Assembly: GCA_903823215.1 (NCBI GenBank)
Contig: CAIJRY010000142.1
Coordinates: forward strand, 1-52,218
Length of the DNA stretch: 52,218 bases
Direction of reading: 5' to 3'
DNA from: an uncultured Spartobacteria bacterium
Lineage (GTDB): Bacteria > Verrucomicrobiota > Verrucomicrobiia > Chthoniobacterales > UBA6821
The position numbers and the translations under genes were made by a program. The notes below the pieces were generated by a model that did no database searches, was not told where the DNA came from, and worked only from the letters and a program-made list of their open reading frames with translations. Of the stretch, positions 2,652-37,784 are shown piece by piece (within the stretch, counting starts at the first letter, position 1; each line of letters opens with the position of its first letter).

Positions 2652-2692
2652 GGGGGAAGGATGAAACCGGAACGCTTAAACTTGAAGGAAAA

Positions 2693-12491: not shown

Positions 12492-12584
12492 AGAAGCGTC
12501 ACTCTTGATGATTTTGATTGGGGGTTTGCCGCTTGACGGAGTCAGTCGAAAGTGCTTTTGACGAGTTGTTACCCCTTCCCCAAA

Positions 12585-13931
12585 ATGAACAATAATCCCT
12601 GCCTTGGTATTTGCTGCTCTGCGGCGCTTATTCTTTCGGGTTTTTCACAACTCATCGCTCAAAACTCCGAGAGTATCACACCTGCCGTGAAGCCCGCCCT
12701 TCAGTGGAAATATGGGTGGAAAGATGGAAGTCTGGCTAACACGATTGGCAGGTTTCGAGGAGGACATGCCCTTCCTGCGGCCAGCAGTTATACCTCCACT
12801 GGCTACATACCGTCGCAGATATCCCGTGCTTATGGTTTCGATCAGATTGCGACGAATGGTGATGGGAGAGGTCAGATTATAGCGATTATTGATGCCTACG
12901 GCAGCAGTAACATTCAGTCGGATCTGAATGCTTTCTGTGCTCAGTATGGGCTGCCCGTCGCCACGGTCAGCGTTGTCTATCCGTCAGGAAAACCTTCGGT
13001 ACAGGATGCGGGCTGGGCTGGAGAGTCCACGCTTGATGTGGAATGGGCTCATGCCATGGCTCCCGGGGCATCCATTGTGCTGGTGGTAGCACCCAATGCT
13101 GGCATCAGCAGTCTGATTGCATCGGTGAATTATGCGGTTTCCACGCTCAAGGCAAATGTTGTCTCCATGAGTTGGGGGGCTACCGAGTTCTTGGGGGAAC
13201 TCAACTACGATTCCTCATTCAATAAGTCTGGTGTTACCTTTGTGGCCTCCTCCGGTGATACGGGAGGAATTGTTGATTGGCCCGCCAGTTCTCCTTTTGT
13301 TCTCGGGGTTGGAGGCACAACACTGCTCTATAATTCAAGTTCCGGCCTCGTTTCATCGGAAGTGGCTTGGAGTGGCAGCGGGGGAGGAATGAGTCGTTTC
13401 GAAGCACTTCCCTCCTATCAGGCTGGATGGAATGTAAATCCTGGAAGAGGAATTCCTGATGTGGCCTACAATGCTGACCCTTATACTGGAGTGTCGGTTT
13501 TCTTCACAGATCCGACAAAGACCAACTCGGGTGGGTGGTATATCTTTGGCGGGACAAGTGCAGGTGCTCCCCAGTGGTCCGCACTGATTTCACGCCGTGC
13601 TAGTTTGGGCAATAATTCCAGCATTGCCGGATTTCAAACTCTTCTCTACGGAGCTGCTAAAACAAACTACGCATCCCTGCTCCGCGATATCATTTCAGGC
13701 AGCAATGGTTATCGAGCGGTGACGGGATTCGACCTTGTGACAGGACTCGGTTCTCCATTGGCCGCCAAGGTAGTACAGCTTCCAAGTGTCCTTCCGACTC
13801 CTACACCCACACCGAAGCCCTCCCCCACGCCAAGCCCGACCCCGACACCGAAGCCCTCTCCCACGCCTAGTCCCAAGCCAACACCAAGTCCGCGCCCAAC
13901 GCCGCCGCGCTTGTTTTGGTGGCAGAATTAA
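12585..13931 (+). CDS. secreted S53 (sedolisin/kumamolisin-like) serine peptidase with a Pro/Thr/Ser-rich C-terminal tail
   Basis: Signal peptide present. Blocks IAIIDAYG, GESTLDVEWAHAMAPGA (Glu/Asp of the S53 triad) and GGTSAGAPQWSAL (Ser nucleophile). The tail is PTPTPTPKPSPTPSPTPTPKPSPTPSPKPTPSPRPTPP. The start could be GTG 12552 or ATG 12585. Confidence 0.7.
   Translation: MNNNPCLGICCSAALILSGFSQLIAQNSESITPAVKPALQWKYGWKDGSLANTIGRFRGGHALPAASSYTSTGYIPSQISRAYGFDQIATNGDGRGQIIAIIDAYGSSNIQSDLNAFCAQYGLPVATVSVVYPSGKPSVQDAGWAGESTLDVEWAHAMAPGASIVLVVAPNAGISSLIASVNYAVSTLKANVVSMSWGATEFLGELNYDSSFNKSGVTFVASSGDTGGIVDWPASSPFVLGVGGTTLLYNSSSGLVSSEVAWSGSGGGMSRFEALPSYQAGWNVNPGRGIPDVAYNADPYTGVSVFFTDPTKTNSGGWYIFGGTSAGAPQWSALISRRASLGNNSSIAGFQTLLYGAAKTNYASLLRDIISGSNGYRAVTGFDLVTGLGSPLAAKVVQLPSVLPTPTPTPKPSPTPSPTPTPKPSPTPSPKPTPSPRPTPPRLFWWQN
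13795..13905 (+). repeat. tandem coding repeat (about 36-bp unit, two clear copies) encoding the PT-rich linker
   Basis: ACACCGAAGCCCTC[C/T]CCCACGCC recurs at 13809 and 13845, a 36-bp period, inside the peptidase 3' end. Confidence 0.7.
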
Positions 13932-16517: not shown

Positions 16518-18674
16518 ATGAGCGCCACGCCAGAAACCAAAAATCCGAACTCTCCGGATCGTGCCTTTCCGTTGGATCGCACGCGTAATATCGGTATTTG
16601 CGCTCACATTGACGCTGGCAAGACAACCTTGACCGAACGTGTTCTCTTCTACACGGGCATGATCCACAAGATCGGCGAAGTGCATGAAGGAGCGGCGACC
16701 ACCGACTGGATGGAGCAAGAAAAGGAGCGTGGTATCACAATCACCTCTGCTGCAACCACTTGCAGTTGGAAGCAGCTCCCGCAGGAAAATGTTGTGAAGC
16801 TTTTTGACGGAATCCAGCAGAGAATCAACATTATCGATACTCCAGGCCACGTCGATTTCACGGCTGAGGTGGAGCGTTCCCTCCGTGTTCTTGATGGAGC
16901 AATTGCCGTGTTCTGTGGTGTTGCCGGCGTGCAACCACAATCTGAAACTGTTTGGCGACAAGCCAACAAATACAATGTTCCCCGCATCGCCTTCGTCAAT
17001 AAGATGGATCGCACGGGTGCCAATTTTGATAACGCCGTTTCCGACATGCGTACGAAGCTCGGTGCTAACGCTTGGCCGATTCTGATTCCCATCGGTGCCG
17101 AAGATCATCTTCAGGGGCAAATTGATGTCGTGAACCAAAAGGCTGTCATCTATGCCGATGATGCCAGTATGGGCTCAAACTATACGGTGGAAGAAATCCC
17201 GGAAGAGTTAAAGGCCAAAGCGCAGGCTGCATACGAGGATCTCGTCAATCAGATGATGGATCTTGATGAAGAAGTAGGAATGCTCTTCTTGGAAGAAAAG
17301 CCGGTGACGCGTGAGATCCTTAAAAATGCAATCCGTCGCCAGACGATTACCAACCGATTTGTGCCGGTTGCTGGCGGTTCTGCTTTCAAGAATAAGGGCG
17401 TCCAGTATCTCCTTGATGCTGTTGTTGATTATCTTCCAAGCCCGATTGACATTCCTCCCGCCAAGGGAATGGACCCTGATAACGGGAATGACAAGTTCGC
17501 TGCAACCAGCGATTTTGAACCTTTCTGTTCACTTGCATTCAAACTTTGGAGCGATCCATTCGTAGGGAAGCTCGTTTTCTTCCGCGTCTATTCCGGAAAA
17601 CTCAGTAAGGGTGATACTGTGCTCAATCCTCGCACCGGTAAACGGGAACGCATCAGCCGTCTGATTCAGATCCAAGCTGACAAACGCGAAGATATCGATA
17701 CCTGTTACTCAGGTGACATCGCAGCAATCGTAGGCATTAGAAACATCACGACTGGCGATACGCTCTGTACCGAAGATGTGCCTATCGCTCTTGAGCCTCC
17801 TTCATTCCCTGATCCGGTGATCTCGATGTCCATCGAGCCTAAGACCAAGGTTGATCAGGAGAAAATGGGAAATGCTCTTCAACGCCTCTCCGAAGAAGAT
17901 CCCACTTTCCGCGTATTCACAGACGAGGAAACTGGACAGACCATCATCGCTGGAATGGGTGAACTGCATCTCGAAATTATCAGGGATCGCATGCTCCGTG
18001 AGTTCAAGGTTGAGGCTAACTCCGGTAAGCCCCAGATTGCTTACAAAGAGACCATTCTCAACCCTGCCGGTGGCGAAGGAAAACTTGTCAAGCAGTCCGG
18101 TGGTCGTGGTCAATACGGCCATGTCGTCATCAAACTTGCCCCGAATGAAAAGGGCAAGGGGGTCACTATCGAGAATAAAACAGTCGGCGGTTCTATTCCA
18201 AAGGATTTCATCCCTGCTGTCATCAAGGGCCTCAATGAGGCAGCTCTCAATGGAGTTGTTGGCGGCTATCCCGTCATTGATGTTCATGTAGAGATCGTGG
18301 ATGGCTCCTACCACGATGTGGATTCCAACGAAATGGCATTCAAAATGGCTGCCATCTTTGCCATGAAGGATGGTCTTAAGAATGCCAAATCCATTCTCCT
18401 TGAACCAATCATGAAGGTCGAAGCCGTGACACCTGAGGAATATCAGGGTGACATCATGGGCGATCTCAACCGCCGTCGCGGCAAGATCATGTCGATCGAA
18501 ACCAAGACCATCGTCACCAATGTCAACGCAGAGGTTCCCCTCTCCGAAATGTTCGGTTACGCCACTGCAATCCGCTCACTCTCCAAGGGCCGTGCATCCT
18601 ACTCCATGGAGCCCTCTCACTTCGAACAAGTCCCGGCTCAGGTATTGGCCGCGGTTCTCGATCAGAAAAACTAA
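16518..18674 (+). CDS. fusA: elongation factor G
   Basis: [23 protein letters not shown] and NKMDR G-motifs. 718 aa, following rpsL-rpsG. Confidence 0.96.
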
Positions 18675-18686
18675 CCACTTACGACT

Positions 18687-18998
18687 ATGGCCGCTGGACA
18701 ACGCATCCGTATCCGCCTTAAAGGCTTCGATTTCCGACTTCTGGACATCTCTGCTCTCGAAATTGTCGAGACTGCAAAACGAACAGGATCCAAAGTAACG
18801 GGACCCATTCCACTCCCGACCCGCATCGAGAAATTCACTGTGAACCGTTCCCCGCATGTCGACAAAAAGTCGATGGATCAGTTTGAGATTCGCACGCACA
18901 AACGACTTCTCGACATTCTCGAACCCACTGCCAAGACCGTGGATGAGCTGCGCAAGCTCAATCTGCCTGCCGGCGTGGATATCACCATTAAGATCTGA
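18687..18998 (+). CDS. rpsJ: 30S ribosomal protein S10
   Basis: [15 protein letters not shown]...GPIPLPT...[22 protein letters not shown]. Confidence 0.96.
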
Positions 18999-19040
18999 CG
19001 ATCTGTTCACCACTAGGATTTTTATACTTTTACAAGCATT

Positions 19041-19688
19041 ATGAGCATCGGTGTTCTCGGAAAAAAAGTCGGCATGACCCGCGTTTATGACGCAAAGGGT
19101 CGCATCCGTCCTGTGACAGTTATCGAAGCAGGTGGCAATCGCGTTCTTCAGGTCAAGGGCAAGGAGAAAGAGGGATATTCATCCGTTCAAATCGGCTTTG
19201 GTGATCAGAAGGAGCATCGAATGAGCAAGCCTCAATTGGGGCACTTTGCCAAGAGCTCCTCCACTCCCAAGCGTTTCATCCGTGAGTTTCGTCTCAAGGA
19301 TGGCGAAGCAGCCCCCGAGTTGGGCGATTGGTCTGTCACAAATTTTCAGGATGGTCAGTTCGTGGATGTCATCTCGACTTCGAAAGGTAAGGGATTCCAG
19401 GGCGTTGTGCGCCGTTTTAAATTTGCCGGTCAGCCGGAGACTCACGGTTCCATGATGCACCGCCGGAATGGTGCAATCGGAAACCGCCTTACTCCCGGTC
19501 GTGTTTGGAAGAACATGGGTATGCCCGGTCACATGGGTGATGAGCGCATCACGATCCAGAATCTTGAGATTGTGCAAGTGCGTGAAGCCGACGGAGTGAT
19601 CCTTGTCAGCGGAGCAATCCCCGGCGCAAAGGGCACCTTTGTTGTCGTTCGTCCCTCCAAGAAAAAATCAGCAAAAGTTACCAAGTAA
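19041..19688 (+). CDS. rplC: 50S ribosomal protein L3
   Basis: GVLGKKVGMTRVYD...GKGFQGVVRRF.F.GQP.THGS..HR..G.IG pattern and operon position. Confidence 0.95.
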   Translation: MSIGVLGKKVGMTRVYDAKGRIRPVTVIEAGGNRVLQVKGKEKEGYSSVQIGFGDQKEHRMSKPQLGHFAKSSSTPKRFIREFRLKDGEAAPELGDWSVTNFQDGQFVDVISTSKGKGFQGVVRRFKFAGQPETHGSMMHRRNGAIGNRLTPGRVWKNMGMPGHMGDERITIQNLEIVQVREADGVILVSGAIPGAKGTFVVVRPSKKKSAKVTK

Positions 19689-19691
19689 CCC

Positions 19692-20306
19692 ATGAGCGCT
19701 ACCATTCTCACAGCCGATGTGGCCAAACAGGCCAAGATCGATATCATCACTGACGGAAAAGGAACCCAGGCGGTTCACGATGTGGTTGTCGCCATGCGAG
19801 CCAACCGTCGTAGTGGAACGGCTTCTGTAAAGACCAAGGCCACAGTGAATCTGTCCGGCAAAAAACCCTGGAAACAAAAGGGGACAGGCCGAGCGCGCGC
19901 CGGTTATGCCAGTTCTCCTGTGTGGGTAGGTGGTGGTGTCGTCCATGGACCTCACCCTCGCAGCTATGCCAAAACAACTCCCAAGGCCGTCAAGCGGCTT
20001 GCCTTTCGTAAGGCACTGAGCGCACGGGTTCTCTCCGGAGATGTCCTCATTGTGGATTCCTTCGAGTTGAAAGAGCCAAAAACCAAGCAGTTTATCTCAC
20101 TCGTTGAAAGTTTCCATGGTGGTGTTCGCCGCACGCTCATCGTGGCAACCAGTTTCACGGAACCTACTTTTCTTGCTGCTCGCAATGTCCAGAGCGATCT
20201 GCTCATCACGGCATCGGAAGTAAATACCGAGAATCTTCTCGCATTCGACAAAATCATCATCACCAAGGATGCCCTCGAGGCACTTGGCAACCGCCTACAA
20301 GGCTAA
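19692..20306 (+). CDS. rplD: 50S ribosomal protein L4
   Basis: GKKPWKQKGTGRARAG...SP.W.GGG..HGP pattern and operon position. Confidence 0.95.
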   Translation: MSATILTADVAKQAKIDIITDGKGTQAVHDVVVAMRANRRSGTASVKTKATVNLSGKKPWKQKGTGRARAGYASSPVWVGGGVVHGPHPRSYAKTTPKAVKRLAFRKALSARVLSGDVLIVDSFELKEPKTKQFISLVESFHGGVRRTLIVATSFTEPTFLAARNVQSDLLITASEVNTENLLAFDKIIITKDALEALGNRLQG

Positions 20307-20310
20307 AGGC

Positions 20311-20595
20311 ATGAAAGAAGCCCACGATATCATCCGCCGCGTGCTTGTGACAGAGAAGGCAAGCCTTCTCTCCGAAAAGTTCAACAAGTATGTTTTCCGT
20401 GTCTCAACGGACGCCAACAAGATTGAGATTAAGCATGCCATTGAGACGCTCTTCAAGAAGAAGGTCTCCCAGGTAAATACTCTTCAGGTTGATGGCAAAA
20501 AAAAGCGTGAACGGCGCGCCGACTACGGTCGCACTCCGCATTGGAAGAAGGCCATTGTCACCCTCGCTCCCGGGGAGAAGATTGATCTTGCCTAA
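20311..20595 (+). CDS. rplW: 50S ribosomal protein L23
   Basis: [12 protein letters not shown]...[21 protein letters not shown]. The start is trimmed to ATG 20311, directly after the rplD stop. Confidence 0.93.
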
Positions 20596-20630
20596 GGAAA
20601 AATAACGGAGCCCATACCTATCCTAAGACC

Positions 20631-21470
20631 ATGGCATTAAAAACCTTTCGTCCTCTGACTCCATCGCAGCGCTTCAAGGCGCTGCCATCCTTTGAGGAGA
20701 TCACCAAGAGCAAGCCCGAGAAATCACTTGTTGAGAGCAAACACCGCACCGGCGGTCGTAACAACATGGGGCGCAAGACGTCCCGCCATCGTGGTGGTGG
20801 TCATAAGAAAAAATACCGTATCATTGATTTTAAGCGTTGCCGTCGTGATGCGGTCGCAGAAGTGATCGCCATCGAGTACGATCCGAACCGCAGTGCACGG
20901 CTTGCTCTCATTCAGTATCCTGACGGCGAAAAAGCCTACATTCTGGCAGCCAGTGGTCTGACCATCGGCCTTAAGGTCGCAGCCGGTGAAGCCGCAGAGC
21001 CCAATGTCGGCAATGCTCTTCCGCTCAAATCCATTCCGCTCGGTCTTGCAATTCACAACATCGAACTGATTCCGGGCAAAGGTGGGCAGATTGTTCGCAG
21101 TGCCGGATCGCAAGCAATTCTCAGCAACCGTGAAGGAGGCTTTGCTCTGCTTAAACTGGCCTCCGGCGAACTTCGCCGTGTCAACGAAGAGTGCTACGCA
21201 ACCATCGGACAGGTAGGGAACATTGAGCACATGAATGTCATCAGTGGAAAGGCAGGGCGATCCCGTTGGCTCGGTATACGGCCTCAAACCCGCGGTATGG
21301 CAATGAACCCAGTTGATCACCCGATGGGTGGTGGACAGGGCAAGAGTAAGGGAGGTGGCGGACGCCATCATCCCATGAGCCCATGGGGTCAGCTTTCCAA
21401 GGGCTTTAAGACCCGAGACAAACATAAACAAAGCGACCGATTCATCGTGCAGCGTCGCAAAAAGAAATAA
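20631..21470 (+). CDS. rplB: 50S ribosomal protein L2
   Basis: [21 protein letters not shown]...[11 protein letters not shown]. Confidence 0.96.
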
Positions 21471-21476
21471 TTTACT

Positions 21477-21755
21477 ATGGCACGCTCCCTAAAAAAAGGT
21501 CCGTTCGTCGAGTGGAAACTCCTCGAGAAGATCGATAAACTCAACGAGAACAACACCAAGAAGCCGATCAAGACTTGGTCTCGCCGTTCGACCGTGACCC
21601 CCGACTTTGTTGGCCACACATTCAATGTCCACAACGGGCGTTCTTTCATTCCTGTTTTCGTCACGGAAAACATGGTGGGTCACAAACTTGGAGAGTTTGC
21701 CCCCACCCGTATCTTTAAGAAACACGGATCTCATACCGCCAAGGTCACGAAGTAA
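21477..21755 (+). CDS. rpsS: 30S ribosomal protein S19
   Basis: [10 protein letters not shown]...[44 protein letters not shown]. Confidence 0.96.
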
Positions 21756-21780
21756 TCAAGATACTCACCAGTATTTTCGC

Positions 21781-22557
21781 ATGTCATTAACACGCCATAC
21801 AAGCCATCTGTCAGCGGTGACAGCAGCTGCCCTTGCCTCACTTGTGGGCATTCCGCTTGCTGCTGCCCTTGCGCAGAATTCGGTGGCTTCGAGTGTTGGT
21901 AGTGAAACTGCTGGAGCCGCTTCATTCCGTGAAAAACTCATCCTCTCGGAGGCTTCAATCAAGGGGCTGACCGAGAGTCTTGCCGTTGCCAATGGAGAGA
22001 CTGAACTCTTCAAGCGCAAGTACGATGATCTCAACTTGCGCGTCGAGGCTTTGGGTATCGCTCCTGCAGGCAAGGAGGAAGAGACTCTACGCACCCGTCT
22101 TTTGGCGGCGGTTCGCGATATGCGGCTATTGCAGAAAGAAAATGATGTCACGCGCGAACAGATGGTTCGCCTCACCGAGGTGGTGATGGATCTGTTGAAA
22201 ACTTCGGATGGCATTGATGCCAAGACCCGCCTCAAGGTAGAACAGGAATTGCGCGCATCGGCCGCGCTCACCGCATCCAGGAGCAGCGCTGTAGCCACAA
22301 CCGGTACTGTTGGGCTGACAAGCGGAATGGTTGTGGATTACAAGCCTGATCTCGCTCTTGTTGTCGCCAATCTTGGTGCCCGTCAGGGAGTCAAGACCGG
22401 TATGCCCTTTCAAATCTGGCACGGAGACAGACAAGTTGCCTCTGCCAGGGTTGTGGATGTGCGGGACGCCATCAGCGGCGCCATCGTGCAGAATACAATA
22501 TCCACTTCCGACACAGTCAAGGCGGGAGACACCTTCCGTATCGATACCACCCGCTGA
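21781..22557 (+). CDS. hypothetical exported coiled-coil protein embedded in the S10 operon
   Basis: 258 codons from ATG 21781. The listed ORF start at 21607 overlaps rpsS and was rejected. The protein has a signal peptide (...AAALA/QN), a long charged helical region and a C-terminal beta-rich module (VVDYKPDLALVVANLGARQGVKTGMPFQIW...VVDVRDAISGAIVQ...VKAGDTFRI). It fills the whole rpsS-rplV gap on the same strand, with no flanking terminators. Confidence 0.6.
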   Translation: MSLTRHTSHLSAVTAAALASLVGIPLAAALAQNSVASSVGSETAGAASFREKLILSEASIKGLTESLAVANGETELFKRKYDDLNLRVEALGIAPAGKEEETLRTRLLAAVRDMRLLQKENDVTREQMVRLTEVVMDLLKTSDGIDAKTRLKVEQELRASAALTASRSSAVATTGTVGLTSGMVVDYKPDLALVVANLGARQGVKTGMPFQIWHGDRQVASARVVDVRDAISGAIVQNTISTSDTVKAGDTFRIDTTR

Positions 22558-22589
22558 TTCAAAAAACTTTACGAACGAATTTTCTAACC

Positions 22590-23060
22590 ATGCAAGTCAT
22601 CGCCACCCACCGTTACGCGCGCATCTCCGCCTTTAAGGCCCGTGAGGTTACCCGTGAGATTCAAGGCCTGCCGGCCGTTGATGCCCTCCAGCAGCTTGGA
22701 TTCATACCTAAGAAAGCAGCCCCATTGATTGCAAAGACTCTCAAGAGTGCGATCGCCAACGCCGAGCATAACAATAATGTGCGGGCTGAGCTTCTGGTCA
22801 TCAAGGAGGCTGTGATCGGTGAGGCCCCTACAATCAAACGGATCCGTCCCAAGGCCCGTGGAAGCGCAGGCCCTGTTCGCAAGCGCAACAGCCACATTCG
22901 TATTGTCCTGACCGACGAAGTACCGATCGTGCGGCGTGCGGATAAGGTAGCCAAAGCTGGCAGATCCAAAGTTTCCAAAAAATCAAAAGCCGAACATCAA
23001 CCGGTTCCAGCCACTCCAGAAGTAACGAATCTTGAAGTAACAGGGGAATCTGCATCCTAA
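22590..23060 (+). CDS. rplV: 50S ribosomal protein L22
   Basis: RYARISAFKAREV.R.I.G......L.F.P.KAA....K.L.SA.ANAE.N core, with a roughly 45-aa low-complexity C-terminal extension. Confidence 0.94.
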   Translation: MQVIATHRYARISAFKAREVTREIQGLPAVDALQQLGFIPKKAAPLIAKTLKSAIANAEHNNNVRAELLVIKEAVIGEAPTIKRIRPKARGSAGPVRKRNSHIRIVLTDEVPIVRRADKVAKAGRSKVSKKSKAEHQPVPATPEVTNLEVTGESAS

Positions 23061-23095
23061 GCCTCTCAGCCTACAAGCCAACCGAACAATAAATT

Positions 23096-23821
23096 ATGGG
23101 ACAAAAAGTCAACCCAATCGGCTTCCGCCTTCCGATCACCCGTGATTGGACCTCACGCTGGTATGCCAACGAGAAAGAATTTGCCGATTTCCTTTATGCA
23201 GATCAGTTGATCCGTGGCTGGCTCAAGAAGAAACTCAAGACTGCCGCTGTATCGCGAATCGTGATTGAACGAGCATGGAACAGTGTGCGCGTGACAATTT
23301 TCACCGCCCGGCCTGGCATTGTGATCGGACGCAAAGGGTCCGAAATTGAGACCATGACCAAAGAGGTCTCGCGCCTCGCAGGTGGTAAACAGGCAAAAAT
23401 TGATATTATTGAAATCAAGCAACCGGAATTGGATGCCACGCTTGTTGCTGAAAGTGTTGCGGGTCAACTGGAACGCCGTATCGGATTCCGTCGTGCCATG
23501 AAAAAAGCGATGCAGATTGCAATGGACATGGGTGCCGACGGTATCAAGATCCGTGCAAGCGGTCGTCTTGGCGGTGCTGAAATCGCACGAACAGAGGTAG
23601 TTCGCAATGGGACGATACCCCTTCATACGCTCCGCACCAATATCGATTACGGATTTGCCGAGGCTGACACCATTGCAGGAAAAATCGGCGTCAAATGCTG
23701 GATTTGCAAAAAGCCAGAGAAGCCCGTTGAGGCGGAAAATCAATCCAGAGATGCGGCGTCTGCTGGCAGTCGCTCAGTTTCCAACCGAGATGCCCAGGCT
23801 CCCGCCGAGGCAGTTGCCTAA
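23096..23821 (+). CDS. rpsC: 30S ribosomal protein S3
   Basis: [12 protein letters not shown]....W.S.W.A, KH domain GRKG.EIE, and [11 protein letters not shown]....G..PLHTLR..IDYG. Confidence 0.96.
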
Positions 23822-23842
23822 TTATTTTCAAGGAGAACAGTC

Positions 23843-24262
23843 ATGCCTTTGCTACCCAAAAGAGTTAAGTATCGCAAGACCCAGCGCGGAAGTCGCACTG
23901 GCATCGCTTCGCGCAACATCAATATTGATTTTGGTGAATTTGGTCTTCAGACCCTAGAAAGGGCATGGATCACCAACACCCAGATTGAAGCTGCCCGTGT
24001 TGCTCTCACTCGTAACATGAAGAGAAAGGGTAAGCTCTGGATCCGCATTTTTCCCGACAAGTCAGTGACAGCTCGCCCGCCAGAGACGCGTATGGGTAAA
24101 GGCAAGGGCCAGCCTGAGTATTGGGTTGCGACGGTGCGGCCTGGAAACATCCTCTTTGAACTTGATGGCATCCCTGAGTCGGTCGCACGTGAATCTCTGC
24201 GCCTAGCAGCTAATAAACTGCCGATCCGTACGAAGTTCATCACTCGTCACCACGCTTCCTAA
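23843..24262 (+). CDS. rplP: 50S ribosomal protein L16
   Basis: [15 protein letters not shown]...G...RN..I.FGEFGLQ...RMGKGKG.PEYWVA.V.PG.ILFE. Confidence 0.96.
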
Positions 24263-24287
24263 GCACTTTTAACAACAGGATCCGAAT

Positions 24288-24482
24288 ATGACTCTTGACG
24301 AAATCCGCGAATTGACGCCTAATGAGCTTTCTTCCCGTAAAAAGGAACTGCGCCAGGAGATATTCCATCTCCGCTTACAGCAGCAGGCTGGTCAGCTTGA
24401 AAAGCCTCATCTACTGCGCACTTTGCGCCGTGAAATTGCCCGGCTTGAAACCGTACTGACGGCCAAATCCAAGGCACAGTAA
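24288..24482 (+). CDS. rpmC: 50S ribosomal protein L29
   Basis: 64 aa with EIRELTPNEL....KEL.QE.F.LR.Q.A.GQLE.PH.L....R.IAR..TVL. Confidence 0.93.
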   Translation: MTLDEIRELTPNELSSRKKELRQEIFHLRLQQQAGQLEKPHLLRTLRREIARLETVLTAKSKAQ

Positions 24483-24528
24483 GAAGAACAAGCATCCAGC
24501 CCTGCACCATTTACATTAGGCCACAGCC

Positions 24529-24822
24529 ATGAACGACACCGCAATTCAAACACCATCCGAATCCCCAGCCGTCGCATCACGAGGTCTACGCAAGACCCGT
24601 GTCGGTGAAGTGATCTCTGACAAGATGGACAAGACCATTGTGGTCAAGTCCATCACTCGTGTTCCTCATCCCCTTTTTGGAAAAATCGTCAAGCAGGTGA
24701 AGAAATTCCATGTGCATGATGAGAAGAACGAGGCCAAAATCGGAGATCGCGTATCGATCGCAGAGACCCGTCCACTGAGCCGTCTCAAGCGCTGGCGCCT
24801 TGTCGAGGTGATCCGTCACTAA
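24529..24822 (+). CDS. rpsQ: 30S ribosomal protein S17
   Basis: [16 protein letters not shown]......HPLFGK.VK..KKF.VHDE.NEAKIGD.V.I.ETRPLS..KRW.LVEV. Confidence 0.94.
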
Positions 24823-24871
24823 GCCGCAACTCAATTTTTAAGGAAAACCTTCTTTACAGGAACCAACTCCC

Positions 24872-25237
24872 ATGATCCAGATTCGCTCCCGCCTTGATGT
24901 TGCCGACAATACCGGTGCTCGCATGGCAACCATGATCGGTGTAATTGGCAAGCGCACACTCGTCGCCCGCGTTGGTGATGTGATCACAGCCAATGTCAAA
25001 GAGGCTGCCACAGGCGGCACCGTCAAAAAAGGTGATGTTGTCCGCGCTGTCGTCGTTCGCACAAGACAGCCAGTTCGCCGGGAGGATGGTTCGTATCTGC
25101 GATTCGACAGCAATGCCATTGTAATCATTGACAAGGATCTCAATCCACGCGGCACCCGTATCTTCGGCCCTGTCGCACGCGAACTCCGTGAAAAGAACTT
25201 CATGAAGATCGTTTCACTGGCCCCGGAAGTCCTCTAG
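24872..25237 (+). CDS. rplN: 50S ribosomal protein L14
   Basis: [17 protein letters not shown].......G....A.VGDVI...VKEA...G.VKKGDVV.AVVVRT. Confidence 0.96.
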
Positions 25238-25251
25238 TATTTTTTCAGACC

Positions 25252-25614
25252 ATGCCCGCTCTTCAGCTCATAAAAACTCATGTTCACGCCGGTGACCTTG
25301 TCAAGGTCATCTCAGGAAACCATCGTGGCTCCGAAGGTAAGATCCTGCAGGTAAATCGTGCCAAACACCAAGTTGTCATCGAGGGGGTTCGCATGATCAA
25401 GAAACATGTGAAGCGTTCGCAGGAACAGCCCAACGGTGCGATTATCGAGCGCGAGGGGCCTATTCATATTTCCAATGTGAAGCTTATCGAAAAGAAAGCC
25501 TCTTCTTCGGCCTCAGTCAAGGAAGCCAAGGTGAGTAAACCCGCCAAGGAAAAGAATACGCCCAAGCCCAAGGTTCCTAAGGCACCTAAAGCTGCCAAGC
25601 CCACAGTCGAATAA
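25252..25614 (+). CDS. rplX: 50S ribosomal protein L24
   Basis: KOW-type core GDLVKVISGNHRGSEGKILQV......V.IEGV.M.KKH.K, with a Lys/Pro/Ala-rich C-terminal extension. Confidence 0.93.
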   Translation: MPALQLIKTHVHAGDLVKVISGNHRGSEGKILQVNRAKHQVVIEGVRMIKKHVKRSQEQPNGAIIEREGPIHISNVKLIEKKASSSASVKEAKVSKPAKEKNTPKPKVPKAPKAAKPTVE

Positions 25615-25625
25615 GTTAATCTGCC

Positions 25626-26237
25626 ATGTCACTTCCAATTGCCGAACTTCAGAACGAATACACCACGCGTGTCATTCCTGCGCTTAAAGAAAAGCGCGGC
25701 TACAACAATGTCCATCAGGTTCCCCGTTTGGTGAAGGTGGTAATCAATACATCCATCGCTTCTGCGCCCGATGTAAAGGCCGCCTTGGAAATTGCCAAAG
25801 ATGAATTGGAACTCATCACGGGCCAGAAACCCGTCGAGACGATCGCCAAGAAGGCGATTTCCAATTTCAAGCTTCGGGCCGGACAACCGATCGGAGCAAA
25901 AGTCACCCTGCGCGGCCGAATTATGTATGAATTCCTTGAGCGCCTGATTAAGACGGCACTTCCCAGAATCCGTGATTTTCGTGGGGTATCCGGCCGTGCA
26001 TTTGACGGCAACGGCAACTACACACTTGGTGTGGCTGACCAGTCCATCTTTCCCGAAGTGGAGCTTGATAAAATCAAGCGAAACATAGGCTTTGACATCA
26101 CCATCGTGACTTCCGCGACAAATAACGACGAAGCCCGGGCCCTGCTTACAGAGCTAGGTGTTCCCTTTGTCGGTCGTAATGCCAAGAAAGCAGAAAAGAC
26201 TGCCGAGGCTGCCGAAGAAACTGCAACCGCCGCCTGA
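25626..26237 (+). CDS. rplE: 50S ribosomal protein L5
   Basis: NVHQVPRL.KVV.N......A......A..EL..ITGQKP.......AI.NFKLR.G.PIG.KVTLRG..MYEFL.RL, with an acidic/Ala-rich C-terminal extension. Confidence 0.95.
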   Translation: MSLPIAELQNEYTTRVIPALKEKRGYNNVHQVPRLVKVVINTSIASAPDVKAALEIAKDELELITGQKPVETIAKKAISNFKLRAGQPIGAKVTLRGRIMYEFLERLIKTALPRIRDFRGVSGRAFDGNGNYTLGVADQSIFPEVELDKIKRNIGFDITIVTSATNNDEARALLTELGVPFVGRNAKKAEKTAEAAEETATAA

Positions 26238-26242
26238 TATTC

Positions 26243-26641
26243 ATGAGTGCCCTGACCGATCCCATAGCCGATCTTCTTACCCGAGTCCGCAACGCTGTAA
26301 GCGTTCAGAAGGTGGAGTTCTTTGTACCCTATTCCAAGATCAAAAGCGATATCGTCGCTATTCTGAAACGAGAGGGTTATATTGAAGACTACGAACTTGA
26401 CAATCAGGAGTCTCATCCACGCATCAAGGTGCGCCCCCGTTATGTAGGCAAGACACCCGCAATCGCAGGCCTCCGTAGAATCAGCCGCCCTGGGCTCCGC
26501 CGTTATGTTGGGAGCGAAGAAATTCCCCGTGTTCTCGGTGGATTGGGAATTTCGATCATTTCCACTTCCCGTGGAGTTCTTTCCGGACACGAAGCCCGCA
26601 AGCAGAAAGTCGGCGGCGAACTCCTCGCCTACATCTGGTAG
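26243..26641 (+). CDS. rpsH: 30S ribosomal protein S8
   Basis: LTDPIADLLTR.RNA.....V..P.SK.K..I..ILK.EGYI.D...ISTS.GV......R...VGGE.L.Y.W. Confidence 0.96.
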   Translation: MSALTDPIADLLTRVRNAVSVQKVEFFVPYSKIKSDIVAILKREGYIEDYELDNQESHPRIKVRPRYVGKTPAIAGLRRISRPGLRRYVGSEEIPRVLGGLGISIISTSRGVLSGHEARKQKVGGELLAYIW

Positions 26642-26665
26642 TCAATTCTGTTAACACCCACTCTC

Positions 26666-27205
26666 ATGTCACGAATCGGTAAAACACCAATCACTCTCCC
26701 CGCCGGAGTCAAAGTCGCCTTGGAACAAGGCGGCAAAGTTACGGTAGAAGGATCCAAGGGCAAGTTAAGCTGGGAGCTTCCTTCCGGTATCACTGCTTCC
26801 GTGGAGGGAAACACCCTCACGGTCAGCCGTGCCAATGAAGATCGCTCCGTTCGCGCCCTTCATGGTCTTGCCCGGGCCCTACTCAACAACATGGTCACCG
26901 GAGTCAGTCAGGGATTTCGTCGTGAGCTTGAGATTCAGGGGGTTGGTTTCCGTGCCGCCGTCAAAGGGGATAAGCTCGATCTTTCAGTTGGTTACTCCCA
27001 TCCGATTCTCTTTGAGATTCCCAAAGAGATCAAGGTGGCCGTCACCGATAACACCAAAATCTCTATCGAGGGGATCGACAAGCATCTCGTGGGTCAAGTA
27101 GCGGCAGATATCCGCGCCTATTATCCACCCGAACCTTACAAAGGAAAGGGTATACGCTACGCTGGCGAAGTTGTTCGCCGGAAAGAGGGCAAGACCGTTC
27201 AATAA
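26666..27205 (+). CDS. rplF: 50S ribosomal protein L6
   Basis: MSRIGK.PI..P.GV.V......V.V.G.KG.L......GVGFRA...G..L.L..GYSHPI......YPPEPYKGKGIRY.GE.V.RK.GK. Confidence 0.96.
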   Translation: MSRIGKTPITLPAGVKVALEQGGKVTVEGSKGKLSWELPSGITASVEGNTLTVSRANEDRSVRALHGLARALLNNMVTGVSQGFRRELEIQGVGFRAAVKGDKLDLSVGYSHPILFEIPKEIKVAVTDNTKISIEGIDKHLVGQVAADIRAYYPPEPYKGKGIRYAGEVVRRKEGKTVQ

Positions 27206-32611: not shown

Positions 32612-33247
32612 ATGTCCGAAGAAACGCCCGTCACACCAGAAACTCCCGCTCCAGCATCCGAGAGCCTCTCGCAGGATGCAAAACGCCACGAGGAGACTAA
32701 GGAGCATCATCCGGTAGCGGCTGAAGCCGCACAAGCTGCAGCCGTCGCCGAGACAGCCGCAGCTCCCAAAGCCGAAAAGCCAAAGACCAAGAAGAGCAAG
32801 GAAAAGAAGACAGAGGAAGCTGCTCCTGCTGCTCCTGTGAGCTTCAATCTTGATGATCCGATCGAGCCGCCCAAGATTGTCAAAGCCAAGGGCAGTAAGA
32901 ATATCACGCACGGCATCGCTCATGTGCAGGCTACCTTCAACAACACCATCGTCAGCATCACCGACCTTCGCGGAGCGGTGATCGGATGGGCAAGTGCCGG
33001 CAAGATGGGATTCAAGGGATCCCGTAAGAGCACTGCCTACGCAGCCCAGATGGTTGCTCAGGATGCCTGCCGTCAGGCCATGGGTCACGGTCTCAAGGAA
33101 GTCCAGGTCCGTGTCAAAGGTCCGGGATCAGGCCGTGAATCCGCTGTTCGTGCCATGCAGGCCATCGGACTTGAAATCTCTGTCATTCAGGATGTGACCC
33201 CGGTTCCACATAACGGATGCCGCCCTCCCAAACAGCGCCGCGTCTAA
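32612..33247 (+). CDS. rpsK: 30S ribosomal protein S11 with a long low-complexity N-terminal extension
   Basis: The conserved core begins near residue 98 ([21 protein letters not shown]....[17 protein letters not shown]) and ends ...[15 protein letters not shown]. It is preceded by about 80 aa rich in Ala, Glu, Lys and Pro, in frame from ATG 32612. Confidence 0.9.
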
Positions 33248-33288: not shown

Positions 33289-33900
33289 ATGGCCCGTCAT
33301 ACTGGACCCAAAACAAAAGTCAGCCGTCGTTACGGCGTACTCCTCGCCGGATCAGCTCGTGCATTCGAGAACAAGCCCTATGCTCCCGGACAACACGGCC
33401 CCAAAGGATCCCGCCGCAAGATTTCCGAATATGGAACAGCTCTCGCTGAAAAGCAGAAGCTGCGTTTTCAGTACGGAGTCTTGGAGCGTCAGTTCCGTCG
33501 CTACTTTGAGACGGCACTCAAGACCCGCGGCATCACGGGGTTGATCCTGCTACAGATTCTTGAAACCCGTCTTGACAATGTCGTCTACAGACTTGGTTTT
33601 TCCAAGACGCGTGCCGGAGCCCGTCAACTTGTCGCTCATGGTCATGTTTCCCTGAATGGCCGCAAGACCGATATTTCCTCGGCTACCCTCAAGGTGGGTG
33701 ATGTGGTTGCCATCCGCGCAAAGGATGGTTCCAAGCGACTTGCCCAGCGGGGTCTTGAGCAGACGCAGATTGTAGAGCCTCCTGATTGGCTGCTTGTGGA
33801 CAAGGAAAACCTAACTGGCAAAGTCGTGCGGATCCCCACTCGTGAAGAGATCAATCCCGTGGTCAATGAGCAACTGGTGGTCGAGTTGTACTCACGCTAA
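33289..33900 (+). CDS. rpsD: 30S ribosomal protein S4
   Basis: MARHTGPK.K.SRR.G......EKQKLRF.YGV.ERQFR.YF, and an S4 RNA-binding domain LE.RLDNVVYRLGF...R..ARQLV.HGH...NG. Confidence 0.95.
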   Translation: MARHTGPKTKVSRRYGVLLAGSARAFENKPYAPGQHGPKGSRRKISEYGTALAEKQKLRFQYGVLERQFRRYFETALKTRGITGLILLQILETRLDNVVYRLGFSKTRAGARQLVAHGHVSLNGRKTDISSATLKVGDVVAIRAKDGSKRLAQRGLEQTQIVEPPDWLLVDKENLTGKVVRIPTREEINPVVNEQLVVELYSR

Positions 33901-33972: not shown

Positions 33973-35184
33973 TTGCTTCGCATGAGAAGGATGTACCACA
34001 ATGCATGGTTAATACTGCCTCCGCATCTGCGTTCGGGGGAGGGATTTCTCTCGGAAGAGGATGGTCTTATTCGGAGTGTGGTAATCAGGGCAGGGAAAGC
34101 TGATTTTGAAGATCTACTGAGCCTGGAGAAGCAACTTTGTGATGAGGAGATAGATTGTCAGGGTGATTATCTCTCGCCTGGCCTGATTGATCTTCACTGC
34201 CATGGAGCCCTTGGCCGAGACACCATGGAAGCCACTCAGGAGGCCTTTGATGTCATCCTGAATTATCACGCGACTCGTGGAACGACACTTGCCGTTTTGA
34301 CCACTGTGGCGGCCTCTTTAAGCGAAATCCAAGGTGTGCTATCCCTTGCAGAGAGGTATCAACAAGAAAGGAACAATCCGTTTTTCGCAGGAATTCATCT
34401 GGAAGGCCCCTATTTCTCTCCTCTCCGTCTGGGAGCGCATCGACGGGCGATGCTGCGTCAGCCCTCTCCAAAAGAAACAGAAGCGCTGTTGAAGTATGCC
34501 GGGGTGATTTTGAGAATCACACTTGCTCCGGAACTTCCTGGAGTCATCGAATCCATACCGTTCCTTTTACGCCACGGGATCGCTGTCAGTGCTGGACATT
34601 CCAATGCCATGCATGATGAGGCACTCGCTGGATTTTCCGCCGGGATCACGCAAGTCACCCATCTCTATAACTGCATGTCTTCGCTTCATAGTAAAAAGGG
34701 ACGCCGCTTCACGGGATTAGCAGAGGCGGCTCTGACGACGCCGGGTGTGCTTTGCGAGGTGATTGCCGATGGGAGGCACCTCTCGCCGACATTGCTCCGT
34801 CTGGCCTGGCTTGCCAAGGGATGGGAAGGGATCGCAATTGTTTCCGATGCGACTGCGGGAGCAGGCCTCTCGGAAGGAGCTTCGTTTCAACTTGGCGGCT
34901 TACTCTGCAGGATTCAACAGGGAGAGGCATTGACGGGGGTGGGAGAGGATCAACGACTGGCGGGTAGCACCATCGGAATGATCGACGGTGTGAGGGGAAT
35001 GGTGGAGGGGGCTCAGTCTTCGCTTGAGGAGGCGGTGGCAATGGCTTCACTCGTCCCTGCACGAGCCTTGAATCTTGAACATTCAAGAGGATCACTTGAA
35101 GTGGGAAAGAGGAGCGATCTGATACGATTTAGGGAAGATTGGCAGATTCGGGGTGTTTGGTCCGCAGGAGAAAAGATCGTTTGA
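33973..35184 (+). CDS. nagA: N-acetylglucosamine-6-phosphate deacetylase
   Basis: GLIDLHCHGA, IHLEGPYFSP, AGHSNA, THLYNCMS and VSDA blocks of the amidohydrolase NagA family. The start is ambiguous: TTG 33973, ATG 33982 or ATG 33991. Confidence 0.85.
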   Translation: MLRMRRMYHNAWLILPPHLRSGEGFLSEEDGLIRSVVIRAGKADFEDLLSLEKQLCDEEIDCQGDYLSPGLIDLHCHGALGRDTMEATQEAFDVILNYHATRGTTLAVLTTVAASLSEIQGVLSLAERYQQERNNPFFAGIHLEGPYFSPLRLGAHRRAMLRQPSPKETEALLKYAGVILRITLAPELPGVIESIPFLLRHGIAVSAGHSNAMHDEALAGFSAGITQVTHLYNCMSSLHSKKGRRFTGLAEAALTTPGVLCEVIADGRHLSPTLLRLAWLAKGWEGIAIVSDATAGAGLSEGASFQLGGLLCRIQQGEALTGVGEDQRLAGSTIGMIDGVRGMVEGAQSSLEEAVAMASLVPARALNLEHSRGSLEVGKRSDLIRFREDWQIRGVWSAGEKIV

Positions 35185-35324: not shown

Positions 35325-37784
35325 TTGCGACTCTGGTTTCTTGTGCCGGTGTTCCTGCTCGGGATTGCCTGCCTGTCCGCTCTTGTGGGATACGGATGGC
35401 TTGTCTCGGAGTTTTCCGCCAAGGCTGAGTCCTTTGATCTGAGCAAGCTTCCCAAGATGGAATCGGCCAGTGTGATTCTGGATCGTTCGGGTCAGCAAAT
35501 GGGAAAAATTTTCATTCAGAACAGACTTCCGGTTGCCTATGATCAGATTCCCAAGGAGATGGTCAATGCCGTGGTCGCGGAGGAGGATAATCGTTTCTTT
35601 GAGCATCATGGGGTCGACTACTATGGTGTGCTTCGAGCAGCCATCAGTAACTATCGTCAGGGAAGGGTGAAGCAGGGAGCCAGCACGGTGACGCAGCAGT
35701 TGGCGCGTAATTCCTTTGATCTGAAAGAGAGAACCTTCCGGCGCAAGATACTGGAAATGTTTGTGGCACGGCGGATCGAGGACCACCTCACCAAAGATAA
35801 AATCATGGAGCTCTATCTGAACCGTGTCTATTTCGGCAGTGGTTTCTATGGCGTGGAAGCTGCGGCGCGGGGATACTTTGGAAAATCCGCCAAGGGAATG
35901 AGTGTGGGAGAGTGCGCGATGCTGGCGGGATTACTAAAAAGTCCCAACGGACTCTCTCCGTGGAATAATCCCACAGGAGCAAAAAAAGTCCGTGATTTCG
36001 TACTTACCAGAATGAGGGAGATGCGATTGATCACCCGGGAGGAACTCGAGAGCGCACTGGAACTTCCCCTTTCCGTGCGCAAGAGAACCAATCCGAACAG
36101 AGTTTCCTATGCGATCGACCTGGTGCGTCAGCAGGCGATTGCGGCGCTCGGATACGACAGGGCAATGAATGAAGGGGTCAGGATTCAGACCACCTTCGAT
36201 GCCAAGATGCAGATGGCTGCTGAACACTCCCTCCATGCACATCTTGATTCCGTCGAACATCAGCCTGGGTACAATCATCTGACCTACGAACGCTACCGTC
36301 AGATCAATCAGAATCTGGAGGTAGCGGCACAAAGGGGAGAGCCTGTCACCATGCCTGCTCCTGGGTATCTGCAGGGAGCCGTGCTCGCAGTCGATAACAA
36401 CACGGGGGGTATCTTAGCTCTGGCCGGTGGCCGTGATTTTCTTCACAGCGAATACAACCGCGCTCTTCAGGGGCGACGACCTCCCGGCACCCTCTTCACG
36501 CCGATGCTCGCAGCCGCAGCCTATGCCAAGGGAATCTTCCCCGGTGATACCGTCGATGATGCCTGCATCGATAATCGGTTTGTCATGATCGGGGGAGACA
36601 GTGGAATCCTCGGAGAGTGGGGTGTGGAGAGGTCGGATAATGAATATGAAGGCCCGATGCCCTCCAGTGAAGCTGTTGCCCGAGGTAAGAATGCCGCCGT
36701 GGTGCGACTCGGGTTTATGACCGGGCTGGATGCGGTGGAAAAATTCTGCAAGGACGCTGGCATCCGCTCCCCGCTTCGTGATGTTGCTAATGCCTATCTC
36801 GGTTCCAGTGAAATGACCCTCGATGAACTCACCCTTGCCTACACGGTATTTCCCGGAGGAGGGAGTCGTCCTGCGAAGCTCTTCACGATCACCCGTATCA
36901 CTGATCCCGAGGGGAACCTGTTGTACGAGAATCCTGTGACCCGCATTCCTGTCATTTCTGCTGAGGCTGCCTATCAGGTGCATACAGTGCTTGAGAAAGC
37001 TCTGCACAAAGCCTATTCCCCGGAGGCTACCAGCGCGGGGATTGCCACCAATTCTCCATTGGCTGGCAAATCAGGCACGGCTTATGATTTTACCGACACA
37101 TGGTTTATCGGCTACTCAAGTGCCGTGACTTGCGGTGTCTGGGTGGGATTTGACAAACCGACCAAAATCTATCGTGGGGCCTTTGGCAAGGATCTGGCTC
37201 TGCCGATCTGGGCACAAGTGATGAATGCTTCGCTGCCACTTTTCCCAACACGCATTCTGCAGGTTCCTCAGGGGCTCAAGCCTGTTGAAATCTGCCGTAC
37301 TTCAGGGCTTCTACCTGCTCAGGAGTGTAGAAAAACACATGGCCTGATCGCCACCGAGTATGCCACAGCCGAAGAGGTGCCCACAGTGCCGTGTGATATC
37401 CATGGAGGAGGAGTAAGGGATTACAGCAAGGGAATTGATCAGGAGGAATGGCCGCGTGCAGCCGCCGTTATCGACCTCACGCGCATTCGACCAGTGACCG
37501 TGAACGCTCCTACCTTGCTTGCTCAAAACGACCTCTATCGCTCCGTGAATCCCGTGATGCGTGGAGGGTCGGTGGATGAATCGGGGATTAAGGTTGCGCG
37601 TGCCACAACCCCGGATGGAAAAGATCCGGATGCTAACGCCACCAATCAGGTGTCAACCAATGCTCCTGTTGCCAAACCGGGTGAAGAAAAAGAAGTCCGC
37701 AAAGCGGAGGCCGTTCGGCCGATGGATTTGCCAACCGGAGCCCCGGTGATGGCATTGCCCGCCCCCAAACCCGCCGACTTTTAA
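35325..37784 (+). CDS. mrcA: class A penicillin-binding protein (GT51 glycosyltransferase plus a transpeptidase-like domain with a degenerate active site)
   Basis: N-terminal TM anchor. GT51 motifs EDNRFFEHHG, GASTVTQQLARN, RRKILEM and KDKIMELYLNRVYFG are present. In the transpeptidase region only KSGT is retained. The positions expected for SxxK and SxN read TLFT and GKN. TTG start at 35325. Confidence 0.85.
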   Translation: MRLWFLVPVFLLGIACLSALVGYGWLVSEFSAKAESFDLSKLPKMESASVILDRSGQQMGKIFIQNRLPVAYDQIPKEMVNAVVAEEDNRFFEHHGVDYYGVLRAAISNYRQGRVKQGASTVTQQLARNSFDLKERTFRRKILEMFVARRIEDHLTKDKIMELYLNRVYFGSGFYGVEAAARGYFGKSAKGMSVGECAMLAGLLKSPNGLSPWNNPTGAKKVRDFVLTRMREMRLITREELESALELPLSVRKRTNPNRVSYAIDLVRQQAIAALGYDRAMNEGVRIQTTFDAKMQMAAEHSLHAHLDSVEHQPGYNHLTYERYRQINQNLEVAAQRGEPVTMPAPGYLQGAVLAVDNNTGGILALAGGRDFLHSEYNRALQGRRPPGTLFTPMLAAAAYAKGIFPGDTVDDACIDNRFVMIGGDSGILGEWGVERSDNEYEGPMPSSEAVARGKNAAVVRLGFMTGLDAVEKFCKDAGIRSPLRDVANAYLGSSEMTLDELTLAYTVFPGGGSRPAKLFTITRITDPEGNLLYENPVTRIPVISAEAAYQVHTVLEKALHKAYSPEATSAGIATNSPLAGKSGTAYDFTDTWFIGYSSAVTCGVWVGFDKPTKIYRGAFGKDLALPIWAQVMNASLPLFPTRILQVPQGLKPVEICRTSGLLPAQECRKTHGLIATEYATAEEVPTVPCDIHGGGVRDYSKGIDQEEWPRAAAVIDLTRIRPVTVNAPTLLAQNDLYRSVNPVMRGGSVDESGIKVARATTPDGKDPDANATNQVSTNAPVAKPGEEKEVRKAEAVRPMDLPTGAPVMALPAPKPADF

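Follow-up and report, generated by a model that had tools for sequence, protein, structure and literature searches.

Why would a gene for a predicted exported protein lie inside the S10 ribosomal protein operon, whose interior, with rpsS and rplV side by side, is among the most stable gene arrangements in bacteria? The question is raised by a stretch of DNA of 52,218 nucleotides (nt) from an uncultured Spartobacteria bacterium (Verrucomicrobiota; Chthoniobacterales; GenBank assembly GCA_903823215.1, contig CAIJRY010000142.1, positions 1 to 52,218 of the forward strand), the whole of which we refer to as the window. Here rpsS and rplV, which are adjacent in Chlamydia, are separated by 834 base pairs (bp) that are nearly filled by a single same-strand open reading frame (ORF) of 258 codons at 21781..22557, hereafter gene X, leaving spacers of 25 and 32 bp. 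An earlier note made from the sequence alone had described this layout, and the ORF positions bear out its coordinates and spacer lengths. The analyses below favour, at a probability of roughly 0.6, a reading in which X is a genuine, vertically inherited passenger cistron of the S10 messenger RNA (mRNA) and its product a periplasmic or envelope protein, perhaps an oligomerizing scaffold.

Gene X belongs to a large uncharacterized family

Gene X runs on the + strand from an ATG at 21781 to a TGA stop at 22555–22557 and encodes a predicted exported protein. A longer version of the same frame, from a TTG start (21607–22557), overlaps rpsS; the start shared with orthologues is the ATG at 21781. 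Pfam and NCBIfam contain no family that the window X protein matches at threshold. A word-indexed search returned 183 homologues, all unnamed or annotated as 'hypothetical', and a profile search of 1.84 billion representative sequences returned 970 clusters (50% identity level) at E ≤ 1e-3, with 398 at E ≤ 1e-10 and 121 at E ≤ 1e-30; family members are mostly 240–300 amino acids (aa) long among the 150 matches listed. The few organism names carried by these clusters are Terrimicrobium sp. and metagenome-assembled genomes (MAGs) of Verrucomicrobiales, Verrucomicrobiae and Verrucomicrobiota, and a homologue search seeded with one remote member, P0254, gave five matches.

Identity of the orthologues to the window protein ranges from 93% down to approximately 27%. 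Measured against 12 relatives, the ratio of nonsynonymous to synonymous substitution rates (dN/dS) is 0.10–0.17 for X versus 0.00–0.09 for rplB, rpsS, rplV and rpsC; X is therefore under purifying selection, yet evolves faster than the neighbouring ribosomal protein genes. Its GC content and third-position GC (GC3) of 0.555 and 0.564, compared with 0.535 and 0.553 for the ribosomal protein genes, are native to the genome. X is a real gene, a conclusion to which its confident structure model also contributes, and apparently single-copy. Recent horizontal acquisition was considered and rejected, given the native composition and a divergence that tracks that of the ribosomal proteins.

In public records the 5′ end of X is often mis-called, being either over-extended or placed so late that the signal peptide is lost. 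The over-extended case is an apparent 343-aa fusion of S19 to X (P0204; L058, 1648–2777), which was dismissed as a gene call carried 5′ across most of the S19 gene, with S19 itself intact in another frame.

The rpsS–X–rplV order is conserved across a verrucomicrobial clade

A scan of one genome per GTDB species, using peptide patterns taken from a close alignment, recovered 55 loci, in MAGs labelled Chthoniobacterales, Spartobacteria, Chthoniobacter or Verrucomicrobia-type except for two labelled 'bacterium' and one labelled 'Proteobacteria'. Because the patterns were derived from close relatives, this restriction to Chthoniobacterales is a property of the search and not of the family. In all, X was found in 67 loci, with S19 directly upstream in 64, L22 directly downstream in 66 and both flanks in place in 63. 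The flanking genes are themselves well supported: S19 in the related loci is 73–100% identical to the S19 of the window, L22 shows 45–96% identity (tblastn), and Pfam recognizes Ribosomal_S19 and Ribosomal_L22 on the orthologous genes. Of the four misses, two fall at contig ends (L020 and L060), one has a long N-terminal extension and is an artefact of the distance cut-off (L054), and one (L048) is a true exception that is weighed further below. A syntenic homologue with an intact frame between S19 and L22, without which the earlier note's proposal would have lost its footing, is otherwise present in all related genomes examined.

Remote family members only 27–33% identical to the window protein (P0270, P0248, P0204, P0268, P0261 and P0254 (Verrucomicrobiales) and P0244 (Verrucomicrobiae)) all lie directly upstream of L22, and directly downstream of S19 wherever the contig extends that far; the same order occurs in MAGs labelled Verrucomicrobiota and Candidatus (Ca.) Methylacidiphilales. 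As a less biased test, we ran an S19 profile search and considered the genes 3′ of four S19 matches chosen without reference to X. In 4 of 4, the next gene lacks a Pfam match and encodes approximately 224–268 aa (cut by the contig end in L069 and L070), and L22 follows it in the three loci that are long enough. Two of these four genes were scored with the family Hidden Markov Model (HMM) and both are X, at E = 7e-92 (L066) and E = 6e-42 (L065, a 'Ca. Methylacidiphilales' MAG), and on a fifth, short contig S19 is followed by an X-type start.

RplB of the remote carriers is 59–66% identical to that of the window, compared with 68–77% among labelled Chthoniobacterales, which suggests that the rpsS–X–rplV arrangement predates this order. 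Pairwise identity of X follows that of RplB plus RpsC closely (Spearman 0.87 over 1,596 pairs), and this indicates vertical inheritance of X together with the operon. The notion of a feature common to the wider Verrucomicrobiota, or to the Planctomycetes–Verrucomicrobia–Chlamydiae (PVC) bacteria, thus holds for a large verrucomicrobial clade.

Two of these loci show peculiarities of their own. The MAG labelled 'Proteobacteria bacterium WB4_3_0938' (L016, RFPR01000056) carries X and has S10 operon proteins 90–97% identical to those of the window, and is evidently a mislabelled verrucomicrobium. In a 'Verrucomicrobiales' MAG (L063, 5278–6202), no S3 is called between L22 and L16, where there is only an 82-aa ORF without a Pfam match; a frameshift in rpsC or an assembly error is likely.

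The product is predicted to be exported

The sole hydrophobic segment of the X protein is its N terminus (Kyte–Doolittle (KD) hydropathy 2.05 over 19 residues), which ends in ALA|QN, the bar marking the predicted cleavage site. The putative signal peptide, residues 1–32 (MSLTRHTSHLSAVTAAALASLVGIPLAAALA|QN; 21781..21876, + strand), looks to be of the type handled by the Sec pathway and signal peptidase I (SPase I), with no Cys and no lipobox. By hand reading and hydropathy of the window protein and 55 orthologues, we found a positive n-region, a hydrophobic h-region of about 10–20 residues, small residues at positions −3 and −1 and no further transmembrane segment. Nearly all orthologues have an equivalent segment, preceded by positive residues and followed by A|Q or A|E, and it is kept even in orthologues with less than 30% identity elsewhere. 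The hydropathy test was passed by 107 of 128 full-length family representatives; most of the 21 that failed begin inside the apparent end of the signal peptide, and these signal-less representatives therefore look like mis-called starts. Export of the X protein via Sec is what these features predict.

An example is the 227-aa call in L065, a candidate for a signal-less X that was discarded as a mis-called start, since an upstream ATG restores the signal. Re-read from the ATG at 2781 (2781–3515), directly after the S19 stop, this protein begins MSGKPATKAGLVAGWLVMMTVLSC... and contains a lipobox-like sequence, ...MMTVLSC (VLSC), so that X may be lipid-anchored in at least one lineage.

These properties bear on whether X could instead be a cytoplasmic, lineage-specific ribosomal protein or ribosome-assembly factor whose hydrophobic N terminus is no export signal. 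Nearly all other genes of the S10 operon encode ribosomal proteins, small beta-barrels are frequent among such proteins, and X keeps its position as strictly as the ribosomal protein genes do. Yet the signal-like N terminus and its A|Q/E site persist where the rest of the protein is less than 30% identical, and the isoelectric point (pI) of the mature region is 6.9 for the window protein and 5.9 as the family median, compared with 9.4–11.4 for the ribosomal proteins of the window. Moreover, the dN/dS of X is 2–10 times that of the neighbouring ribosomal protein genes, its codon adaptation falls below that of every ribosomal protein gene, and its top fold matches, FlgT and MreC, are periplasmic. 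We regard a ribosomal function as highly improbable, in line with the earlier view, now also resting on the lack of any ribosomal Pfam or NCBIfam match, the near-neutral pI and the signal-like N terminus, that the product does not resemble a ribosomal protein.

A helical region followed by a small beta-barrel

An AlphaFold2 (AF2) model built from an 80-sequence alignment spanning 25–93% identity (meed7733ade8c) reached a predicted local distance difference test (pLDDT) score of 84; an alignment of 30 close sequences had yielded only a poor model (pLDDT 62), which was set aside. Residues 1–40 are of low confidence, with the signal peptide below 50, as expected for a signal peptide. They are followed by a helical region at residues 42–171 (21904..22293, + strand; pLDDT 88–97) comprising helices 42–91, 98–140 and 147–171, which are separated by short conserved loops and include the conserved columns E73, G92, L107 and L131. 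Given the high local confidence, the three helices probably pack as a bundle. The most conserved helix motif of the family, LTESLAvANgEtElFkR (also written LTESLAxANxExExFR/K), points to a specific partner or else to close packing of the helices. The chain ends in a small beta-barrel at residues 182–254 (22324..22542, + strand; pLDDT 94–97) with the motifs N-x-G-x3-GV-x2-GMPF and VRVVDVRD-x-ISGA. The signal peptide, helical region and C-terminal beta module that had been read by eye from the translation are thus all recovered by model and hydropathy, and the domain architecture and fold class are established: in this genome the mature X protein, approximately 24 kDa and near-neutral, consists of a helical region and a small beta-barrel.

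Foldseek against the PDB placed FlgT (3w1e, E = 2e-4) and the Vibrio LPHT ring (8z5n, E = 2.8e-4) first, both at probability 1.00. MreC (2j5u, E = 2e-3) and a YpmB–MreC model also appeared, together with a long series of N-terminal 'crown' barrels of F1/V1-ATPases and of EscN at a root-mean-square deviation (rmsd) of 2.6–3.2 Å over 72–80 columns. A profile search of the PDB by sequence gave coiled-coil noise only (EnvC at 0.01, vimentin, BST2), without a significant match to the barrel.

Could X, then, be a FlgT-like ring protein of the flagellar basal body? FlgT of the Vibrio H-ring is periplasmic, as X is predicted to be, its C-terminal small barrel underlies the two best structural matches, and FlgT_C (PF16538) is the only recurrent Pfam match in the family, at E ≤ 0.01 in 26 of 80 members (best E 7.5e-5), arising in X from a G-x3-GV-x2-G turn motif. 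In the window protein, however, this match is below threshold (20.3 bits versus a gathering score of 27; E = 7.7e-4) and covers only residues 194–215, approximately 22 residues; FlgT_N and FlgT_M are not found, the helical region standing in their place; no flagellar gene was seen in the related loci or in those window ORFs that were scanned; and Chthoniobacter flavus is described as non-motile. A flagellar identity is barely credible.

A likeness to MreC extends further along the chain. X could be an MreC-like component of cell-wall elongation, bitopic or periplasmic, that scaffolds penicillin-binding proteins (PBPs) and sits in S10 so that wall synthesis matches growth: its order of hydrophobic N terminus, coiled coil and barrel corresponds to that of MreC, the barrels are structurally similar, 2 of 80 family members have a weak Pfam match to the MreC barrel core (PF04085), and the window has a gene for a class A PBP 13 kb downstream of X. 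Against this, X has one barrel where MreC has two; its N terminus, which could be cleaved or kept as an anchor, looks cleavable (A-x-A|Q) where MreC has an anchor; the window protein does not match Pfam MreC and the two members that do so reach only E ≥ 0.004 (best 0.0043); and X lies outside the mre operon, not beside mreB or mreD. A canonical MreC has, moreover, been reported in verrucomicrobia (PMC5147048). We consider this role unlikely. X is a member of neither FlgT nor MreC, since it lacks the sequence matches that define these families and the three-domain architecture of FlgT.

The lowest-rmsd superpositions on the X barrel are those of the F1/V1-ATPase alpha/beta crown and of the type III secretion system ATPase EscN, in which this domain forms rings, although these are cytoplasmic enzymes with 9–18% identity and an unrelated remainder, so that the resemblance is one of fold only. 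Shape also underlies the thought of a 'jellyfish' periplasmic holdase chaperone of the Skp or prefoldin kind, in which the barrel would oligomerize and helical arms would hold unfolded outer-membrane proteins. A small beta domain with long, hairpin-like helical arms, the predicted export and the presence of secY in the same gene cluster would suit it, but neither sequence searches nor the 50 best fold matches yielded OmpH/Skp or prefoldin, the domain order differs from that of Skp, and shape is its whole basis; we find it very unlikely.

X as a probable cistron of the S10 mRNA

The window carries a str–S10–spc cluster on the + strand in the order rpsL, rpsG, fusA, rpsJ, rplC, rplD, rplW, rplB, rpsS, X, rplV, rpsC, rplP and onwards to rplO, secY, adk, map, infA, rpmJ, rpsM, rpsK and rpsD. 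Directly upstream of X lies rpsS (ribosomal protein S19, 92 aa; 21477..21755, + strand, from the ORF and its translation), with its TAA stop at 21753–21755, and directly downstream lies rplV (ribosomal protein L22, 156 aa including a C-terminal tail; 22590..23060, + strand). The 25-nt rpsS–X spacer (21756..21780, + strand) contains no terminator, promoter-like site or Shine–Dalgarno-like motif, and the 32-nt X–rplV spacer (22558..22589, + strand) contains no terminator or promoter-like site. A consensus scan of 18000–27000, with a promoter model of the sigma-70 type that leaves other promoter types uncovered, gave no + strand terminator-like or promoter-like site within 21756–22589. Neither junction is more structured than its shuffles (z = 0.12 for rpsS–X and 0.83 for X–rplV), and Rfam has no match in the rpsS–X–rplV region. 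Scan and folding thus agree with the earlier observation that neither side has a hairpin followed by a T-run, and with the absence of an insulating promoter–terminator pair.

The same compactness is seen in relatives, where the rpsS–X spacer is 2–88 nt (median 22) and the X–rplV spacer 0–132 nt (median 12.5). In 10 loci the rplV start abuts the X stop in a TAAATG junction, and rplV is therefore likely to be translationally coupled to X in some lineages. From the shared strand, the short spacers, the synteny and the lack of room for a terminator plus promoter, we infer that X is co-transcribed as a cistron of the S10 mRNA, a reading also favoured because insulating X would sever the downstream ribosomal protein genes from their promoter.

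The converse, that X is an insulated transcription unit with its own unrecognized promoter and terminator and an expression untied from that of the ribosomal proteins, draws on the blindness of the scan to promoters other than sigma-70, on the codon adaptation of X, which is unlike that of its neighbours, and on L048, where X–rplV lies 3′ of an unrelated gene and which implies that a promoter upstream of X can exist. It is hard to fit into spacers of 25 and 32 nt here, with medians of 22 and 12.5 nt and 0 nt at the 10 TAAATG junctions in relatives; no hairpin with a T-run and no folding beyond that of shuffles was found; and such a unit would cut rplV–rpsC–rplP and beyond off from the S10 promoter. 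We hold insulation to be quite improbable.

A probable passenger gene in an unusual position

Non-ribosomal passengers are familiar from the spc and alpha operons. Like X, secY, adk, map and infA lie on the same strand as the ribosomal protein genes, with short spacers, no terminators and conserved synteny; secY, like X in its proposed role, serves the envelope and secretion; and in the window's own secY–adk–map–infA run after rplO, the codon adaptation of secY, adk and map resembles that of X. The positional conservation that marks such passengers is found for X across 67 loci, down to 27% X identity and 59% RplB identity. Unlike X, however, these genes are near-universal, functionally characterized and located where spc ends, whereas X is clade-restricted and splits the interior of S10. 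In a reconstruction of the cluster in Gammaproteobacteria and Bacilli, the insertion events described are located between operons or in rpoBC, with none of them inside S10 (PMC8046335). We found no description in the literature of a gene between rpsS and rplV in Verrucomicrobia, and the Methylacidiphilum genome paper makes no mention of the arrangement. CT421.2, a hypothetical protein that is likewise confined to a clade and has been put forward as a molecular marker of the PVC group, was rejected as a counterpart of X, being 53–80 aa long and unrelated to it in length and architecture (PMC3444138). We regard X as a new passenger gene, present throughout the clade at an unusual site in the S10 interior and encoding an uncharacterized family, and its retention at the exact spot down to approximately 27% identity speaks for strong selection on the linkage or against removal of the gene.

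Under the favoured reading, X would have settled between rpsS and rplV in a common ancestor of a large verrucomicrobial clade, where it has been retained since. It would be transcribed inside the S10 operon mRNA, as secY, adk and map are within spc, and would have an initiation region of its own, with translation at an ordinary level rather than at that of a ribosomal protein. The product would then be exported by Sec, possibly lipidated in some lineages, and act in the periplasm or cell envelope, where it might oligomerize or dock onto an envelope machine through its barrel in a structural or scaffolding role, with its mRNA supply tied to ribosome production. Barrels of this type serve as docking or ring-forming modules, as in FlgT in the H-ring, MreC with PBP2 and the F1 crown, and by this analogy we propose the oligomerizing or scaffolding role, with low confidence.

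Several observations weigh against this reading or narrow it. In L048, a MAG labelled 'Verrucomicrobia bacterium SZAS-18', rpsS is missing upstream of X and an unrelated 963-aa gene stands in its place, while X–rplV–rpsC is kept; X needs another promoter there, and dependence on the S10 promoter is therefore not absolute. The taxonomic breadth of the arrangement depends on the labels that submitters gave to their MAGs. The codon adaptation index of X, referenced to the ribosomal protein genes of the window with those genes scored leave-one-out, is 0.648, more than 2 standard deviations (SD) below the ribosomal protein genes (0.733 ± 0.038, minimum 0.668), which makes very high expression, and an abundant structural protein, less likely. 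The fold matches are confined to the approximately 75-residue barrel, a common small fold, with template modelling (TM) scores over the whole query of 0.19–0.26. Finally, no sequence family is matched at threshold, and the scaffold role is therefore an analogy.

As for L048 itself, the 963-aa gene lies in DNA of approximately 72% GC and X–rplV–rpsC in DNA of approximately 63% GC (1–4700); the break exactly upstream of X may reflect either a genuine rearrangement or chimeric assembly of the contig.

The codon data also place X more precisely. The 23 other genes of the window average 0.669 ± 0.048, and secY, adk and map score 0.629, 0.633 and 0.602, so that the codon use of X is like that of ordinary genes and of other non-ribosomal passengers, and unlike that of ribosomal proteins. 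Growth-rate coupling of X would stand one step beyond the co-transcription that it presupposes, and any such coupling is probably transcriptional and not at the level of ribosomal protein output. The earlier picture of an exported, co-transcribed and therefore growth-coupled protein is thus upheld in its genomic aspects (synteny, intact frame and lack of insulation), with its growth coupling tempered by the adaptation value of X.

A bolder version would make X an essential, lineage-defining envelope protein of Verrucomicrobiae, for example a periplasmic scaffold forming a ring or lattice, hard-wired in S10 to make the building of the envelope follow ribosome synthesis. We think this doubtful; if true, an essential envelope protein in S10 would be an undescribed way in which envelope growth is coupled to translation capacity, as well as a clean synapomorphy of the clade. 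The rpsS–X–rplV order can serve as a simple genomic marker of a large verrucomicrobial clade, and X defines an uncharacterized family of 970 clusters (50% identity level) and has a confident model; for this family, cultured Chthoniobacter or Terrimicrobium would be amenable. X also offers a natural case for asking why envelope genes become linked to ribosomal operons and how a stoichiometric operon tolerates a cistron of weak codon adaptation.

Other features of the locus and window

Among the ribosomal proteins of the cluster, the C-terminal tail of L22 varies within the clade, the protein being 156 aa long in the window and 116–257 aa in related loci (for example, L057, 5799–6572, and L061, 2921–3655). 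Ribosomal protein S11 (32612–33247) is 211 aa long, with the Pfam S11 domain only at residues 101–210 and an N-terminal low-complexity extension of approximately 100 residues rich in Ala, Glu, Lys and Pro. Downstream of rpsD (33289–33900) there is no rpoA–rplQ; an amidohydrolase-family gene (33973–35184) comes next, followed by the class A PBP gene (35325–37784), which has transglycosylase and transpeptidase domains. From this gene order, the alpha operon of this genome looks truncated.

Elsewhere in the window, a 459-aa ORF without a Pfam match (12552–13931) is flanked by genes for a branched-chain amino-acid permease component and a LolA-like protein. A 586-aa ORF on the − strand (40643–42403) combines a low-molecular-weight phosphotyrosine phosphatase (residues 19–156) with a complete serine hydroxymethyltransferase (residues 181–556) and may be either a fusion or an over-long ORF call. 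The sole Rfam match in the window is an 89-nt transfer RNA (tRNA) at 43422–43510. It is overlapped by the start of a 424-aa ORF with a TTG start codon (43420–44694), and the 5′ end of this ORF is probably spurious because its start falls inside the tRNA.

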